Below are positions 11,640 to 32,888 of a stretch of 32,888 nucleotides of DNA, piece by piece. Under the pieces are notes generated by a model. The model was given only the letters and a program-made list of their open reading frames with translations. It ran no database searches and was not told where the DNA came from. Origin of the DNA: a virus (lineage: Duplodnaviria > Caudoviricetes); the IMG/VR virus record IMGVR_UViG_3300016476_000286, positions 1 to 32,888 of that record; one strand, 5' to 3'. The translations under genes were made by a program, and so were the position numbers. Every line of letters starts with the position of its first letter. The stretch's first letter is position 1.

Positions 11640-12066
11640 TATTTCAATTTTGGCTTGTAAGCCACAAAAATCAGTTACAGAGTATAAATATATTAGCAAG
11701 ACTGATACGTTGATTAGAAGCGAAATAAACACTATCTACAAAGGTGTTACCGATACAATCACGATTGAAAATCCTTGCGATTCGGTTGGTATTATAAATT
11801 CATTCTATACAAAACTTGTTTTGCCTAATGGTATCATTGAAATCAAATCGAATAAAAAGAACAATCAGCTTACAGGGATTGTTAGGATTAATGATATTGT
11901 ATCAAGTAATAAATCACAAAAGCAATCAAGCAATGCAGAAAGCATTACTACAAAGACAAAAGAAGTAATCAAATATCGAATACCTTCATGGCTAATCATT
12001 GCACTTATGATAGAAACATTTATTATAATTGCATATTTATATCTCAAATATGGATTTAAAAGATAA
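11611..12066 (+). CDS. Putative unimolecular spanin
   Basis: Lipoprotein signal MKKLIYILVSISILA-C, beta-rich middle, C-terminal TM helix; follows endolysin. Confidence 0.7.
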   Translation: MKKLIYILVSISILACKPQKSVTEYKYISKTDTLIRSEINTIYKGVTDTITIENPCDSVGIINSFYTKLVLPNGIIEIKSNKKNNQLTGIVRINDIVSSNKSQKQSSNAESITTKTKEVIKYRIPSWLIIALMIETFIIIAYLYLKYGFKR

Positions 12067-13042
12067 AATTGATGTAATTAAGCAACATTTTAATTCCACG
12101 AATCTCGGAATTACAAAATTTTGTTCAGATTTCTTTGATGTGTATGGTTTTAACCAGCCCGAATCAATGAGGAGATGGATGAATAAAAACGATTTGGGAA
12201 ACAAGGCAAGGGTAGAACAAACCGCAAAACCTATTTCAAAAGGCAAAATACAATCATTTGATGTACATTTGCTTGAAAATTACGGCATCCTTGATTCAAT
12301 CGGGCAAGAATATACAAGCTACAAATTACCGCCAGAGTTTAAACGAATTGGAGTTTTATCAGATATTCACTTCCCATTTCATTCGATGGAGGCTTTAATC
12401 CCAGCGATTAAATACCTAAAAGAAAAAGAGATTGATTGCCTTTATTTGAACGGAGATATATTTGATTTTTATTCTATTAGCAGACATGAGAAAGACCCAG
12501 ACCTACGAGATTTTAAGAGAGAGGTTGAAATGTGTAGGGATTTCGTTCAAAAGCTAAAAGATATTTTCCCTAATTGCTTACTTGTTTACAAATTAGGAAA
12601 CCACGAGGATAGGTATGCAAGAAGCTTACAAGTACAAGCCGAAGAGTTTGCCCAGCTTCACGATTTGCAGTTCCATGTTTTCTTTCACTTGGATAGATTA
12701 GGTTATCAAATAGTTGATTCGTGGAGAGGTTGCGAGATTGGCGATTTGTTGGTTATTCATGGACACGAGGGTTTTGGAACAGGTGGTGTAAACCCAAGTC
12801 AAAGTTTATTTAATAAAATGTATTGTAATACTTTAATGGGTCATGTTCATAGGACTACTAATACAATGAAGAAAACAGGTTTTAATAAAGTTATAAATAC
12901 ATATAGTACGGGTTGTTTAACTACATTGACACCTAAATATATGCCTTATAACAACCACAATCACGGGTTCGCATATTTAGAAGTTAACAATGGAATTACA
13001 AAAGTTGAAAATATTATTATTAAAGACGGGAAAATAGTGTAA
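12050..13042 (+). CDS. Calcineurin-like metallophosphoesterase
   Basis: SDIH, NGDIFD, GNHE, HGH, GHVH motifs in order. Confidence 0.88.
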   Translation: MDLKDKIDVIKQHFNSTNLGITKFCSDFFDVYGFNQPESMRRWMNKNDLGNKARVEQTAKPISKGKIQSFDVHLLENYGILDSIGQEYTSYKLPPEFKRIGVLSDIHFPFHSMEALIPAIKYLKEKEIDCLYLNGDIFDFYSISRHEKDPDLRDFKREVEMCRDFVQKLKDIFPNCLLVYKLGNHEDRYARSLQVQAEEFAQLHDLQFHVFFHLDRLGYQIVDSWRGCEIGDLLVIHGHEGFGTGGVNPSQSLFNKMYCNTLMGHVHRTTNTMKKTGFNKVINTYSTGCLTTLTPKYMPYNNHNHGFAYLEVNNGITKVENIIIKDGKIV

Positions 13043-13047
13043 ATTTG
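13040..13047 (+). promoter_or_regulatory. Bacteroidota housekeeping -7 element
   Basis: TAAATTTG matches TAnnTTTG; predicted +1 near 13051. Confidence 0.6.
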
Positions 13048-13050
13048 TAT

Positions 13051-13142
13051 TAGCAACTGCAACTGCTATTTCAAAACATTAACGGCACATCTTATTTATA
13101 AATGGTTGCAGATTTATATTTAATTTGTGCCTTTATTATTTT
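13051..13142 (+). ncRNA. Structured 5' leader: two hairpins with complementary loops (kissing loop)
   Basis: TAGCA/TGCTA stem with loop CTGCAAC; GGCACA/TGTGCC and TATAAAT/ATTTATA stems with loop GTTGCAG. Confidence 0.65.
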
Positions 13143-13637
13143 ATGGAAATTTATGTTAAAGCAAATTGTGAATTTGAGAATTACTTGATAAGCAATTTAA
13201 CAAATGTAAAAAATGAAATTACAGGTAGGATACTTAAACCACAATTAGATAGATATGGTTACAATTATGTAACTTTAAATAAAAATGGCAAGTCGAAAAA
13301 ATTCAAATTGCATAGATTAATGGCAATGACATTTATTAAAAATTTTGAAAATAAAAAAGAAGTAAATCACATCAATGGCATAAAAACTGATAATAGGATT
13401 GAAAATTTAGAATGGGTTACACATTTTGAAAATCAAATGCACAAAACTCTAATGATGAAAAAAACAAGCAAATACATAGGTGTTTGTTTTTATAAGCAAA
13501 CAAAAAAATGGAAATCCCAAATTCAGATTAATAATAAAAAAATCTCTATTGGTTATTTTGATACTGAAATAGAAGCATATAATGCAAGATTAAAATTCGA
13601 AAAAAATAATAGCATTATTAACAAATATATTGTTTAA
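13143..13637 (+). CDS. HNH homing endonuclease (NUMOD4-like N-terminus, HNH, AP2 domain)
   Basis: LHRLMAMTFI, VNHINGIKTDNRIENLEWVT, SKYIGV...KWKSQI...IGYFDTEIEA; very AT-rich. Confidence 0.92.
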   Translation: MEIYVKANCEFENYLISNLTNVKNEITGRILKPQLDRYGYNYVTLNKNGKSKKFKLHRLMAMTFIKNFENKKEVNHINGIKTDNRIENLEWVTHFENQMHKTLMMKKTSKYIGVCFYKQTKKWKSQIQINNKKISIGYFDTEIEAYNARLKFEKNNSIINKYIV

Positions 13638-13642
13638 ATTTG
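13635..13642 (+). promoter_or_regulatory. Bacteroidota -7 element upstream of a short non-coding transcript
   Basis: TAAATTTG; no credible + strand ORF between it and the terminator at 13697. Confidence 0.55.
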
Positions 13643-13645
13643 AGT

Positions 13646-13728
13646 GTGAGTAAATAGTGTGATGATTTTTTCATAATAGTTAGGTTTTTCTATTTTAAAG
13701 GCAGTTTGTATTTCATTCTGCCTTTTTT
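13646..13728 (+). ncRNA. Candidate antisense small RNA against early-gene start regions
   Basis: Bounded by -7 element and terminator; complementary to start regions of genes at 13811, 14016, 14165 and 14695. Confidence 0.55.
13697..13728 (+). terminator. Intrinsic terminator at late/early junction
   Basis: AAAGGCAG-13 nt-CTGCCTTT followed by more T. Confidence 0.75.
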
Positions 13729-13736
13729 GTAAATTG

Positions 13737-13790
13737 TTATAAAATTTTTTATAAATAATTTTTTAATTCAAAAACTTTGTGTAATTTTAC
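13737..13790 (+). promoter_or_regulatory. Putative early promoter region with AT-only palindrome
   Basis: TAATTTTA (13782-13789) is one mismatch from TAnnTTTG; TTATAAAA-tt-TTTTATAA at 13737-13754. Confidence 0.45.
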
Positions 13791-13810
13791 ATCAACAAAA
13801 CGAAACTATT

Positions 13811-14029
13811 ATGAAAAATCTATTAGAATGCTTAAAACCAGAACACAGAGATTCTATTACAAAAAATGCTTATCAAAGCATGGCAAATCAAGTTTTCCAA
13901 GATTTACAAAATAACTATTCAATTCTTGACTTAAAATTTGAAACCATTATTCATCTTGGTATGTTGCTTGACATTTATCCAATTTTATTTACCGAAATCG
14001 ACAATTTATTCAATTATGAAACTAATTAA
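13811..14029 (+). CDS. Hypothetical protein, first early gene
   Basis: A-rich leader, 72 aa. Confidence 0.7.
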   Translation: MKNLLECLKPEHRDSITKNAYQSMANQVFQDLQNNYSILDLKFETIIHLGMLLDIYPILFTEIDNLFNYETN

Positions 14030-14168
14030 AAAACTATTTACGTTCACAGGGGAGGAAAGTGATAACGTAATCATCGGCAAAGCTGCCTTAATTGCAATGG
14101 TAATTTTCCCATTTGCTTATTTACTTGGACATTTATTTATTGAACTTTTAGCTTATATTGTAAAATGA
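14016..14168 (+). CDS. Small membrane protein
   Basis: Hydrophobic C-terminal segment; ATG 14016 preferred; overlaps next start. Confidence 0.6.
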   Translation: MKLIKKLFTFTGEESDNVIIGKAALIAMVIFPFAYLLGHLFIELLAYIVK

Positions 14169-14698
14169 AAAACCTAATTAAAATTCAGAGAGAGTTAAAC
14201 TGCCCAAAGAATCAGTTTAACAAATTTGGTGGTTACAACTACCGAAACCAAGAGGACATCCTCGAAGCAGTTAAGCCATTGCTTGGCGATTCAATACTAA
14301 TCGTTTCAGATGAGATTGTGGAGATTGGTGGAAGGGTTTACGTTAAGGCAACTGCTACCTTTGTGGAAGGAGAGCATACAGTTTCGACTACTGCATTCGC
14401 AAGAGAGCCAGAAAGCCAAAAGGGAATGAACGATTCGCAAATCACAGGAAGTGCATCAAGCTATGCTCGGAAGTATGCTTTGAATGGATTGTTCTTAATC
14501 GATGATGTAAAGGATGCGGATTCGACCAACACACACGACAAGCCTATTTCAATGAATGGTCAATGGTGGCAACAAGAACTTGCCAAGATAGATAACTTGG
14601 AAGATTTAGGTTTGTTCTATACCAACAATAAATCGAAAATCGATGGTAAGCAAGAGTTGATACAATTATTCACTAAACGCAAATTAGAACTACAATGA
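14165..14698 (+). CDS. erf: ERF-family ssDNA annealing protein
   Basis: PKNQFNKFGGYNYR..EDILEAVKP, QITGSASSYARKYALNGLFLID. Confidence 0.92.
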   Translation: MKNLIKIQRELNCPKNQFNKFGGYNYRNQEDILEAVKPLLGDSILIVSDEIVEIGGRVYVKATATFVEGEHTVSTTAFAREPESQKGMNDSQITGSASSYARKYALNGLFLIDDVKDADSTNTHDKPISMNGQWWQQELAKIDNLEDLGLFYTNNKSKIDGKQELIQLFTKRKLELQ

Positions 14699-15162
14699 AC
14701 CTAATTAACATAGGAAGCGATTTGGATGTTTTAGAAATGAACAAATCGGATTTAATAAGAATTTCTGAATCACTTGTGAATAACTTTGACGAATCAATTA
14801 AAAGCCCATTGAAAATGTTAGCATTTGTTTCCAAGATGAAAACGATGTTAGAAACAATCGAATCTGGATTGACTGCTAAATCAATGACCGAACTTGAATC
14901 GTACAATGGCAAACATTTTGCCTTTGGTATTGAGTTTCAATTATCAGAGGCTGGAGTAAAATACGATTATTCAGCTAATAAGAAATGGGTTGAATTAAAC
15001 GACCAAATTAAATCTTTAGAGGAGAAACGTAAAGCAATGGAGGCATTCATTAAGTCTTTAAAGCAATCGATTACCGAAGTAGATGAAGAGACAGGAGAAG
15101 CGATTAAATGGTTTCCTCCAGCTAAATCAAGTACAACAACAATTAAAAAACGCATAGTATGA
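14695..15162 (+). CDS. Hypothetical protein in recombination module
   Basis: 155 aa, coupled on both sides; GVKYDYS plus coiled coil. Confidence 0.75.
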   Translation: MNLINIGSDLDVLEMNKSDLIRISESLVNNFDESIKSPLKMLAFVSKMKTMLETIESGLTAKSMTELESYNGKHFAFGIEFQLSEAGVKYDYSANKKWVELNDQIKSLEEKRKAMEAFIKSLKQSITEVDEETGEAIKWFPPAKSSTTTIKKRIV

Positions 15163-15450: not shown

Positions 15451-15657
15451 ATGAAAGTAAGAAAGATGAGTTTTTATGCCCAAGTGGCTCAAAGATTAAA
15501 CGAGAGGGGTATCTTGCCCTTCTCGGCAAGAGAATGGAATGTACCATTAGTTCAACGTGTTATCTATGGAAAATCGAAAGACCTTGATGCGATTAAAGCG
15601 ATACAGGAAGTCGCAAAAGAATTCGCAGAAGCTGGGATTCAAATCCCACAACTATGA
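15451..15657 (+). CDS. Small HTH-like DNA-binding protein
   Basis: VAQRLNERGI...WNVPLVQRVI resembles the serine-recombinase 'recombinase' DNA-binding motif. Confidence 0.55.
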   Translation: MKVRKMSFYAQVAQRLNERGILPFSAREWNVPLVQRVIYGKSKDLDAIKAIQEVAKEFAEAGIQIPQL

Positions 15658-20440: not shown

Positions 20441-20619
20441 AACCAGATTTAAAAGCCAAAAGTATTTACAGAAATGCAATCTTTTTTACAAAAGAACATA
20501 AAATGGCTTATGAGTTATGTTTGTTCATTATCAATTCACACATCAATTATTGTAGAAAGATGGATGACAAAGCATATTGGATAGAAGTCAAAATGGCATT
20601 AGATGCAAACAATAACTGA
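20437..20619 (+). CDS. Small hypothetical protein
   Basis: 60 aa, coupled; weakly resembles 25051 protein. Confidence 0.6.
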   Translation: MKPDLKAKSIYRNAIFFTKEHKMAYELCLFIINSHINYCRKMDDKAYWIEVKMALDANNN

Positions 20620-21073
20620 ACTTGTAGCACTCCATAAGCATTGGATTAAAATTGTCCGAAAATTCGGGGAGTGGCATTATGCCGAAGATATAGTACAAGA
20701 AGCATATCTAAAAGCGTTGAGTTCAAAAAAAGAGATTAATTATGCCTATTTTTACCTAATACTTCGTTCCTTAACGATGAACTTACATAAAGCGAAGGTT
20801 GATAAGGTCGAGATAGAAAACATTCCTGACATCGAAGATATTGAGGAAATAGACATCGAGGAATATACGAAGCCGATAATGGATTTCATTAACACTTGGG
20901 AGGACTATGACAGACTTATGTTTTTGATTTGGGTAAACAAAGGTATCTCAATGCGTAAAATGGCAAGGGAATCTGGCATACCATTTATGAGCATATACAA
21001 CACAATTAGAAATTGTAAAGAAAAAATAAAGCAATGGCAAAAAGAAAATCAAAAGGTCTTGGCGACACGTTAG
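20603..21073 (+). CDS. ECF-like sigma-70 family factor (probable late transcription regulator)
   Basis: Region 2 AEDIVQEAYLK; region 4 HTH ISMRKMARESGIPFMSIYNTIRNCKEKIK. Confidence 0.8.
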   Translation: MQTITELVALHKHWIKIVRKFGEWHYAEDIVQEAYLKALSSKKEINYAYFYLILRSLTMNLHKAKVDKVEIENIPDIEDIEEIDIEEYTKPIMDFINTWEDYDRLMFLIWVNKGISMRKMARESGIPFMSIYNTIRNCKEKIKQWQKENQKVLATR

Positions 21074-30655: not shown

Positions 30656-32888
30656 ATGGCATATTTATCAAAATCAGATGCAATAAATAAGTTGAGCAAC
30701 GGACTAATAGATAACGATTCATTTGCTATCTATACATCTGACAATAACTTTAATAATAACACGATATTTTATACTAATTCGGCAAAGACAATTTTATTGC
30801 CACAAGGGAACTATGTTATCCCTTCAAATTATCGTTCAATTTATATTCAGATTGGCTCAAATGGTAAATTTTCAGCCAATCCAGAATTTTTATTTGCAGC
30901 TACTCCAGATGTTTCATTTGTAGACCAATCGATTTTCAATTATCAAACAAAGACAAGGCAGTCAAGTTTTTCTATAACCAACTGTTCACTTTCAAACGAT
31001 GTTTTGACTGATTCAAATTGGTCGACACCATCTCCTTCGGGTAATCCAAAGCAATGGGTAGTAAACAATGGATTCAGAAATACTTCGGCTTTGACAAATA
31101 TAAATTTGTCGGAAATGAAAGGATTTGATTTAATGATTTATGTTGGTGGTAATACAAGTGGGTATTTTAACGATTTCTTTTCAACCTCTTGCTTTGTTCA
31201 TATTGCCCAAGACCTTAATAGGCAGACAATATTTGTAGAAGGGATTTACAATAAAACGTATTTTTTTAAGCAAGATTATTGGTTTGCAAAACAAAACATA
31301 AATTCGCCAACTTTTTACCGAAGGAATTTAAACATTTTGCCAATAACAAATCAAAGAGGTGCTACGAAGTTTAATGCACATATGAGCCAATATATCCACG
31401 ATATTGTGGCTATAAATAGAACTTCGTTAAGAACTTCAACGAGAAAGGCAAGAGGTGTAAATTTTGAGCAAGAGCAATTAGACCCAAAGCAATACAACAC
31501 AACTACCGCAACAAATTTTGGGTTTATTAATGCCGTTGGTTATCCAGATGCTAATTATGTAACACCAAAAGCCGAAAGTATTAATTTCGATGCACCAAAT
31601 GTAGTTGCTGATTTGTTTTTTACAATTTACGGCACTCCGTTTAATACGGCATCGACTACACACCAAGTTCAATTAACGGCAACTTTGCGTTCAATGTTTT
31701 TTCAAGACTTCACAGGTAGCTATACTTATGGAGAAATTACCGTACAATATTCACAAGCTAATCCTTTTCAATGGATTTGTGATTTAACTACAAATGGAGG
31801 TAATTACTTGGCAAAGGCATTTAGAACAAATTTGCAAACAAATGCAAAGATTTGGTTTTTTAACTTTGAATTATTTACGATTGTACAAGATGATGTAATT
31901 GCAAAAAAAGCAATTTTGGAATGCTTTAAAGTCGCTAAACTTGATTTAATTGCTAATAATCTTTTACCTATTGATGTTAAGATAATTTGGTATGCTGGGG
32001 CAAAGTCAATTTATTTTTCAGATGGTGGATTTGAAGACCAATTTGGAGGACAACCAACACCTGCCAATTATTTAAGTTCGCCATATTACAACGATTACCA
32101 CAATTACTACATAGGCAATCAAAACAAATCGGTTCTACAAAGACCATTTGACCAAGCCGTGTACGATTATTGCGAGTTATATCAAGGTATTGCCGTTTCG
32201 AATTACATTAATTCGTACAATACGACTACCTATTTCCATAAAATGGCACACCATTACGACATTAATAACAAATTGATTAAAGAAAGATTAGGCAATAATC
32301 ATCAAGTCAATTTGATGTTCTTAATGTTTGAATATTTTGAAACAGTTGCTGGTTCTAATTGGCTTACAGGAGTAAGAAAAGCTGCCAATGCAAGTGGACA
32401 ACCAGAAGGTGCAAAGCCTGATATTCCACCAGACATATTGCAATCGGTAGGTGCTTGGGCATTCGGTTTTGCCGATGGTAACTTATGGTGGAACTTTAAT
32501 GATTGGGTAATGGAGTTCTACGAGAATTACGCATATCCAACTGCTTATCCGCCAGAAAACTTTAGAAACAATTTTAGTGCAATGGATTGGTATTATTCAT
32601 CTATTGCACAAATGTACCAAAATAGAGATATTTTATCGGCTAATACTGAATGGCAATATGTTCCACAAAGTAAAGGAGGTGGTCAATTTACAAGTGGAAC
32701 GGAAAACTATCCATTTGTTGGATGGGTATTTCAGAGACCTTTGATTTGTGCAAAGTTTAATGTTGCTGGAACGGAAGCATTAGTTTTAGCAATAAATCCG
32801 TTCAATAATGGATATACAAAGACAACTACACAAGTTCAATTAGTTGCTGGTCAAACAATGAGTATTGATATGTTTGGAACGTACACTA
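30656..32888 (+). CDS. Tail-tip/receptor-binding protein (allele B), runs off the window end; ~752 aa when closed; absent from ORF track
   Basis: ATG 1 nt after upstream stop; open to the end (MAYLSKSDAINKLSNG...); continues as the 1-1515 frame. Confidence 0.88.
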   Translation, partial: MAYLSKSDAINKLSNGLIDNDSFAIYTSDNNFNNNTIFYTNSAKTILLPQGNYVIPSNYRSIYIQIGSNGKFSANPEFLFAATPDVSFVDQSIFNYQTKTRQSSFSITNCSLSNDVLTDSNWSTPSPSGNPKQWVVNNGFRNTSALTNINLSEMKGFDLMIYVGGNTSGYFNDFFSTSCFVHIAQDLNRQTIFVEGIYNKTYFFKQDYWFAKQNINSPTFYRRNLNILPITNQRGATKFNAHMSQYIHDIVAINRTSLRTSTRKARGVNFEQEQLDPKQYNTTTATNFGFINAVGYPDANYVTPKAESINFDAPNVVADLFFTIYGTPFNTASTTHQVQLTATLRSMFFQDFTGSYTYGEITVQYSQANPFQWICDLTTNGGNYLAKAFRTNLQTNAKIWFFNFELFTIVQDDVIAKKAILECFKVAKLDLIANNLLPIDVKIIWYAGAKSIYFSDGGFEDQFGGQPTPANYLSSPYYNDYHNYYIGNQNKSVLQRPFDQAVYDYCELYQGIAVSNYINSYNTTTYFHKMAHHYDINNKLIKERLGNNHQVNLMFLMFEYFETVAGSNWLTGVRKAANASGQPEGAKPDIPPDILQSVGAWAFGFADGNLWWNFNDWVMEFYENYAYPTAYPPENFRNNFSAMDWYYSSIAQMYQNRDILSANTEWQYVPQSKGGGQFTSGTENYPFVGWVFQRPLICAKFNVAGTEALVLAINPFNNGYTKTTTQVQLVAGQTMSIDMFGTYT
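31400..32888 (+). repeat. Terminal direct repeat, copy B
   Basis: Colinear with 1-1489. Confidence 0.97.

Follow-up and report, generated by a model that had tools for sequence, protein, structure and literature searches.

Positions 13635 to 13729 (+ strand) of the window, by which we mean the whole stretch of 32,888 nucleotides analyzed here, contain a real, conserved and co-evolving element, which probably encodes a trans-acting small RNA of ~80 nt that would block the translation of early gene 1 and of erf and, less firmly, that of gene 2. Shut-off of the early genes by a small RNA is likely because the tract in the 5′ half of the element is complementary to early start sites, and from one relative to another the two vary together. 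To our knowledge, early-gene shut-off in small Bacteroidota phages is largely unexplained, as are persistence and kin exclusion without a repressor.

Genome context and host

The window is a virus record graded complete; its period is 31,399 bases, and its terminal overlap is mismatched at ~10% of positions; its ends likely reflect a strain mixture or two variants assembled together. In the overlapping ends (1 to 1489 and 31400 to 32888), a 502-codon frame is open at the start, and none is listed at the end. Every long gene of the window is carried on the + strand, and the comparison with PHROGs, Pfam and NCBIfam assigned structural, lysis, phosphoesterase, HNH, Erf, replication-initiator, VRR-NUC, ECF-like sigma and terminase proteins. 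Scans of 51, 30 and 23 proteins revealed no integrase, repressor or antirepressor family, in agreement with an earlier sequence-only reading of this DNA, which had seen no repressor in this phage. A cryptic regulator may be present among the many small family-less ORFs of the window. As regards the host, a member of the Bacteroidota can be inferred from the relatives of the capsid protein, from the three best matches of the phosphoesterase in genome contigs, and from A-rich leaders that lack a Shine-Dalgarno (SD) sequence. In particular, the sole cultured relatives of the capsid protein are the Nonlabens phages P12024L/S (33% identity).

The unit (13635 to 13729) is placed at the boundary between late and early genes. 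The last conserved late gene, which served as an anchor for collecting relatives, encodes a metallo-phosphoesterase (12029 to 13042, +), and an optional gene for a NUMOD4-HNH-AP2 endonuclease (13143 to 13637, +) is inserted between it and the unit, whose promoter-like box is provided by the 3′ end of this HNH gene. A second TAnnTTTG box (13040 to 13047) is found at the phosphoesterase stop and is followed by a structured leader, which travels with the HNH gene (13040 to 13142 with the box, +). This leader, which begins with GCAACT, forms nested hairpins between the box and the HNH start and is kept with divergent HNH genes in the window and in loci L003, L009, L089, L102, L113 and L294; it may serve to control how the homing endonuclease is translated.

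Downstream of the unit, an early promoter box of the TAnnTTTA variant (13782 to 13789, +) lies behind an AT-rich spacer, and a rightward box precedes gene 1 in most relatives. The early genes, all on the + strand, are gene 1 (13811 to 14029; 72 aa), for which, as for gene 6, the family search yielded no usable family, gene 2 (14016 to 14168; 50 aa, with a hydrophobic C-terminal part), erf (14165 to 14698; ERF, PF04404) and gene 4 (14695 to 15162). Two side observations concern this region. The early leaders often open with a small hairpin (AGCAAC..GCT) right after the early promoter (L085 to L090, L106, L144, L147, L156, L157 and L166), and the N-terminal motif of a 68-aa ORF without a family (15451 to 15657), which may be a small DNA-binding protein, recurs in the early operons of many relatives.

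Architecture of the unit

The promoter-like TAnnTTTG (−7) box of the unit (13635 to 13642, +) overlaps the stop codon of the HNH gene and is not accompanied by a TTG at −33. We take TAnnTTTG to be the promoter consensus, and the spacing between the box and the start site is likewise our assumption. The predicted small RNA (13646 to 13729, +; ~82 to 84 nt from a putative start site) consists of a weakly structured 5′ tract and an intrinsic terminator (13697 to 13729, +), with a hairpin at 13697 to 13725 and six U residues at 13723 to 13728. The terminator also closes the late transcription unit, and it is one of just three hairpin/U-tract sites on the + strand of the window at −12 kcal/mol or better. 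The unit folds into the terminator and a weakly structured 5′ half, and the GC content of the region is 24%.

The sequence-only reading had described an ORF-less unit of ~83 nt between the TAnnTTTG element and a terminator. Both positions were verified, and the + strand is indeed devoid of an ORF, but the minus strand carries an 18-codon leftward ORF that starts from the CAT of the tract (13618 to 13674) and is not conserved. A predicted promoter of its own and an intrinsic terminator, with no ORF in between, are at the sequence level what would be expected of a trans-acting small RNA. In the Rfam search, nothing reached the gathering score in the window, and the three sub-threshold matches in 13000 to 13850 were unrelated. 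The sigma-70 scan was unsuited to the promoter type found here, and it missed the terminator.

Complementarity to the early start sites

Within the tract, the segment at 13667 to 13681 is the exact 15-nt complement of 13804 to 13818 at the AUG of gene 1, and the segment at 13680 to 13697, which holds the GGTTT element of the family, forms 17 pairs with one bulge with 14161 to 14177 at the AUG of erf. Furthermore, the segments at 13669 to 13677 and 13646 to 13658 match 14013 to 14021 and 14033 to 14047, in the region of the AUG and the early codons of gene 2 (14013 to 14047), a target with moderate support; the latter segment is included in the RNA only if transcription begins at about 13646. 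All of these positions, on the + strand, coincide with those given by the sequence-only reading, which had proposed a small RNA against the first four early genes.

The observed energy was reached by 10 of the 2000 dinucleotide shuffles for gene 1, by 3 for gene 2 and by 11 for erf; when the anti-AUG core (a heptamer) was held fixed, the corresponding counts were 26, 5 and 22 of 2000. The comparison with dinucleotide-shuffled controls at the phage start regions, which had been suggested as a check, is thus exceeded by these three genes. Gene 4 was rejected as a target: its proposed complementarity (13677 to 13686 with 14698 to 14707, +) does exist, but it was equaled by 976 of the 2000 free shuffles and by 702 of the 2000 core-fixed ones. 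None of the 2000 core-fixed shuffles matched the energy summed over the other three genes, and the length of the perfect run at gene 1 was attained in 3 of 2000 core-kept shuffles. The complementarity to all three genes is above chance, that to gene 2 less robustly so.

Once the costs of opening had been subtracted, net binding amounted to −9.6 kcal/mol for gene 1, −9.7 kcal/mol for erf and −4.8 kcal/mol for gene 4, while the two gene 2 segments gave −6.3 kcal/mol (13646 to 13658) and −1.6 kcal/mol. Gene 2 ranked 2nd among 46 starts when the region from −25 to +35 was used and 27th with that from −20 to +20. Both rankings are topped by gene 17690 through a loose duplex, the longest perfect run of which is 5 nt, an example of how noisy RNAduplex energies are for G/U-rich tracts. 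Four positions of the ranking set were misplaced in the −25 to +35 run and two (lysin and phosphoesterase) in the −20 to +20 run, and no claimed target is among them. At the genome-wide level, four of the five best windows contain a listed start codon, and the top one has the AUG of the sigma gene at its 3′ edge. As a separate observation, this best window (20549 to 20608) lies just upstream of the ECF-like sigma gene (20603 to 21073), which precedes the terminase gene. There are two perfect 15-nt inverted pairs in the genome, one of which sits exactly on the gene 1 AUG; since another such pair exists, a single 15-nt inverted match is near the chance level. The sequence from 13646 to 13830 folds as a long-range helix that brings the tract onto the start of gene 1 (z of −4.7; 0 of 200 shuffles).

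Conservation of the unit

Relatives were gathered via erf and the upstream phosphoesterase. A total of 101 loci were examined, 6 were dropped as short or cut, and the removal of many duplicates left 61 distinct tracts. At a lenient detection threshold, a hairpin and a U-tract were present at most 150 nt from the last late gene in 95 of 95 loci, although one of the loci, L126, later proved to have a different layout and was excluded; L010, L027 and L042 have no phosphoesterase match. The U-tract faces rightward in all units. An anti-AUG (TCAT) occurs in 58 of the 61 distinct tracts, and two others (L091 and L124) belong to a real unit without CAT, where pairing is found upstream of the AUG only. 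The TAnn[T/A]TTG box at the end of the upstream gene accompanies 57 of 61 tracts, compared to 81 of 784 control gene ends. Among 21 cluster representatives, the length of the unit ranges from 53 to 90 nt, and the mean unpaired probability of the tract is 0.62 (21 tracts). The sequences of the terminators vary while the stem is kept, with double-sided changes at 11 of 13 consensus pairs in 13 hand-picked aligned units, the consensus structure of which is the terminator alone.

Clade by clade, corresponding tags could be recognized by eye in the tract and in the leader: GGTTTAGATG versus CATCTAAAC, and in other clades GTTGTTG versus CAACAAC and GGTTTAAG versus CTTAAAC. In the tracts of L085, L151, L134, L136, L141 to L143 and L147, two tandem anti-AUG modules resemble a two-slot array. 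In two other Bacteroidota phages (L342 and L343), an anti-start tail lies near position 1501, before a terminator at a gene 3′ end, and faces a convergent operon.

The genome contigs contributed 15 phosphoesterase loci, in short metagenome bins, and L293 carries the unit; the 8 of these loci with downstream sequence inspected gave no evidence of an integrated prophage. P12024L, the nearest cultured phage according to the capsid protein, has no such unit after its phosphoesterase, from which it follows that the unit is not universal, and no cultured phage carrying it was found. No close relatives of gene 1 were retrieved from viral contigs, nor of the terminator of the window from metagenome contigs. 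Gene 4 relatives gave two uninformative loci, the terminator pattern gave six unrelated ones, and the leader-pattern search in five records gave no matches. A loose motif scan (~46,000 stretches) lacked specificity, and the 122 loci that it yielded were left aside. For one relative from the largest clade (L109, 600 to 4600), the search for RNA runs listed none, which bears on expression in neither direction.

Co-variation of the tract with its own start sites

For the comparison of own and foreign tracts, 86 of the 95 loci (5 being left out for their layout and 4 having no downstream gene) were grouped into 21 clusters. On the gene 1 starts, own tracts gave −16.6 kcal/mol versus −11.7 kcal/mol for foreign tracts, a difference reached by none of 20,000 permutations after the removal of tract and target effects. 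For the best of genes 2 to 4, the count over the same 21 clusters was 2 of 20,000, and for the late genes used as a control it was 866 of 20,000. Since the clusters are kin, one locus was redrawn per clade. With six clades, p was below 0.05 in 59 of 60 draws for gene 1, in 20 of 60 for genes 2 to 4 and in 0 of 60 for late genes; with four clades, the figures were 45, 25 and 0 of 60, respectively. Thus, the tract is firmly matched to its own gene 1 start across six clades, whereas family-wide targeting beyond gene 1 is suggestive.

The co-variation of the small RNA with its targets in relatives, which the sequence-only reading had named as a check, is therefore found at gene 1, where the tract changes with its own start. 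The further proposal of several early targets holds across the family for gene 1, but it finds weak support for genes 2 to 4 when kinship is allowed for; L082, like the window, has separate matches to downstream genes. In the wobble test, the ratio of G-U to A-C was 74:36 in own duplexes and 1499:1015 in foreign ones, so that the excess in own duplexes is only slightly higher. Overall, an accessible, co-varying seed faces initiation regions above chance, as would be expected of a trans-acting small RNA.

HNH insertions and the inverted clade

In eleven loci, an HNH gene is located between the phosphoesterase gene and the tract. These genes fall into five types with 28 to 62% identity. In every type, the 3′ end of the gene forms a box that immediately precedes the tract, and the original box is retained upstream. 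The restoration of the box by five HNH ends favors an own promoter rather than a mere 3′ tail, and the unit is likely transcribed from its own promoter of the host type. Arguing against such a promoter, the TA of the box coincides with the upstream stop codon in most relatives, the TTG at −33 is missing, and the first transcribed base of several units would be a U.

In L105, L118, L119 and L123, the unit is still found after the phosphoesterase gene, and the early and replication genes are oppositely oriented. For this inverted clade, the terminator pattern retrieved 28 loci, 9 of which were long and were scanned. The best opposite-strand duplex coincides with a start codon in five of the nine, at a distance of 7.2 to 8.0 kb in L310, L311, L312 and L320 and of 2.5 kb in L314; in L329 the start codon is the second-best duplex, and the sequences of L313, L324 and L333 end short of the main target gene. 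The energies at the far targets of L311, L312 and L329 (−38.8, −33.1 and −27.2 kcal/mol) were reached by none of 1000 shuffles in the first two loci and by 4 of 1000 in the third, and in L310, L311 and L312, none of 30 shuffles equaled the own tract anywhere in 8 kb. On the same targets, the tract of the sister sub-clade gave −20 to −26 kcal/mol, compared to −26 to −40 kcal/mol for that of the own sub-clade. The strong far matches represent about two independent lineages. Such start-codon matches, 7 to 8 kb away and on the other strand, favor an action in trans.

Against this, a 13-nt match to the promoter-proximal leader in this clade mostly failed the shuffles (10 to 305 of 1000 in 8 loci), and for one tract type it showed no sub-clade specificity. 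The CGT of the L293 and L311 tracts pairs in Watson-Crick fashion with the second and third codons of the target, which rules out its reading as a G-U pair on the AUG. The box of the inverted clade is entirely intergenic, with a TTG 19 nt upstream in 3 of 28 loci, and the unit of L310 is able to close the tract in a loop. We also observed a second anti-start tract with a terminator ~7.8 kb from the first unit of L310, on the early strand, and, by eye, tRNA-like intergenic sequences at the far end of the early strand in L312 and L329.

Alternative explanations

The main alternative, which we consider unlikely, is that the late (lysis-phosphoesterase-HNH) mRNA carries the tract as its 3′ tail, possibly released by processing, and that early translation is shut once late transcription arrives, the box being incidental or weak. 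The terminator closes the late unit as well and is the sole strong one on the + strand beyond 6309, the box overlaps a stop codon and lacks a −33 element, and other Bacteroidota phages (L342 and L343) likewise have anti-start tails ahead of terminators, all of which fits such a tail. However, a box in 57 of 61 tracts versus ~10% of other gene ends, its restoration by five different HNH ends and its free-standing position in the inverted clade argue for a dedicated unit. It is quite improbable, on the other hand, that the tract works solely as a silencer in cis, with read-through late transcripts folding it onto the gene 1 start 137 nt downstream so that gene 1 would not be re-expressed late and no free RNA would be made. 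Exactly such a long-range helix is seen in the fold of 13646 to 13830, and gene 1 gives the strongest and most robust own-phage signal; nevertheless, the inverted clade retains the unit, which there matches starts 7 to 8 kb away on the opposite strand and cannot be explained by pairing in cis, since the read-through RNA would be without targets, and both the window and L082 have separate matches to downstream genes. A cis fold onto gene 1 may act in addition to the trans-acting RNA.

We give similarly little credence to a reading without any antisense RNA, according to which the tract would be a leftward start site (of a mini-gene or of what is left of a former divergent gene) or else the repeated leader motif copied in inverted orientation into the DNA, kept alike by recombination or by a DNA-binding protein. 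In its favor, the minus strand of the tract resembles the phage's own A-rich leader followed by ATG, real leftward genes with such leaders are present in other phages (L064 and L344), and the G-U strand test is weak. However, the first leftward ORFs of 58 tracts are 3 to 48 codons long, occupy all three frames and share no product, and just 5 of 61 spacers have a leftward box, which in part overlaps other motifs. The U-tracts are all rightward, some tracts without CAT or with CGT still match their own targets, and the spacing of the matched blocks in the tract is unlike that of the targets. Finally, it is hardly credible that a T-rich 3′ region and A-rich starts are complementary by chance. 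The 24% GC, the second perfect 15-nt inverted pair in the genome and the gene 4 match, which is of this kind, are compatible with this, but chance is largely refuted by the effect-corrected comparison of own and foreign tracts with its late-gene control, by the clade-level draws, by the core-kept shuffles and by the inverted clade.

Proposed role

For the trans-acting small RNA, the following course can be hypothesized. After infection, the host RNA polymerase would fire the promoter of the unit and the early promoter together, and the terminator-capped RNA would accumulate with a lag. Its U/G-rich tract would then cover the AUG and the upstream adenines of the A-rich starts and block translation, so that the early phase would be ended by a delayed negative feedback; as early translation falls, the phage sigma-like protein (20603 to 21073) would presumably drive later genes. 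Initiation in Flavobacterium is driven by adenines at −3, −6, −12 and −13 and by low structure (PMC6847099), and the upstream adenines presumably serve the ribosomes of Bacteroidota in place of a Shine-Dalgarno sequence.

Between the shut-off and the immunity switch that the sequence-only reading had offered, a shut-off within the lytic cycle is favored, since genes for integration or partition were not detected. Immunity is still considered because tag and tract diverge in lockstep. It is possible, though doubtful, that the unit is an RNA-only immunity determinant of Bacteroidota phages without recognizable repressor and integrase, in which a phage-specific start-site tag would allow kin silencing or a carrier state; a new immunity group would then arise whenever tag and tract are re-coded.

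If the proposed role is true, an RNA of 55 to 90 nt that co-evolves with its own starts would be a compact master switch, and programmable knock-down could be modeled on it in a phylum that has neither SD sequences nor Hfq. Comparative evidence beyond the reach of one genome comes from the inversion, for trans action, and from the HNH cases, for an own promoter. Our search of the open-access literature yielded no report of this kind of unit in a Bacteroidota phage.

Comparison with known RNAs

The antisense RNA sar overlaps its target on the opposite strand, whereas the unit and its targets are non-overlapping and lie 7 to 8 kb apart in the inverted clade, which sets the unit apart from cis-encoded RNAs of this class. 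The same opposite-strand overlap is described for OOP, and P22 sar and lambda OOP are phage antisense RNAs of 68 to 77 nt that inhibit a phage regulatory gene (PMC12197685). These have single targets (ant and cII, respectively), whereas the unit would pair imperfectly with several. In a comparison with type I toxin-antitoxin systems, the 50-aa ORF of gene 2 is hydrophobic, but among the three targets this one is the weakest, and the best matches are with gene 1 and erf.

The c4 RNA of phages P1/P7 is described as a small phage RNA acting near the ribosome-binding site of a phage mRNA, and the differences between P1 and P7 track their own targets (heteroimmunity), as the tract does here (PMC12197685). 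The c4 RNA acts on one antirepressor operon in repressor-based immunity, whereas the unit faces early and recombination genes, with no antirepressor or repressor found. In particular, the unit is not located in an antirepressor or immunity operon; downstream of it lie family-less ORFs, erf and replication genes. Its tract is predicted to be largely unstructured, and neither the Rfam C4 model nor, more generally, the Rfam covariance models of the C4/CI class gave a match.

With the CI RNA of the satellite phage P4, the unit shares a position beside the operon that would be silenced and an RNA-only control of replication genes. CI is processed from the leader of its target and causes premature transcription termination via seqA/seqC (PMC4825925); the unit, instead, has its own box and terminator, and its matches cover AUGs, which points to translation. 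The GibS RNA of Bacteroides thetaiotaomicron, which belongs to a phylum without SD sequences and Hfq/ProQ, is described as repressing via pairing over start codons, and it resembles the unit in its AT-rich, single-stranded 5′ seed of 30 to 50 nt over start codons (PMC7366714). GibS is encoded by the host chromosome and has metabolic targets and a conserved seed, whereas the unit is phage encoded and its seed changes with its own leaders. The unit would work like c4, CI and GibS but stands outside the C4/CI class and that of the cis-encoded sar and OOP RNAs.
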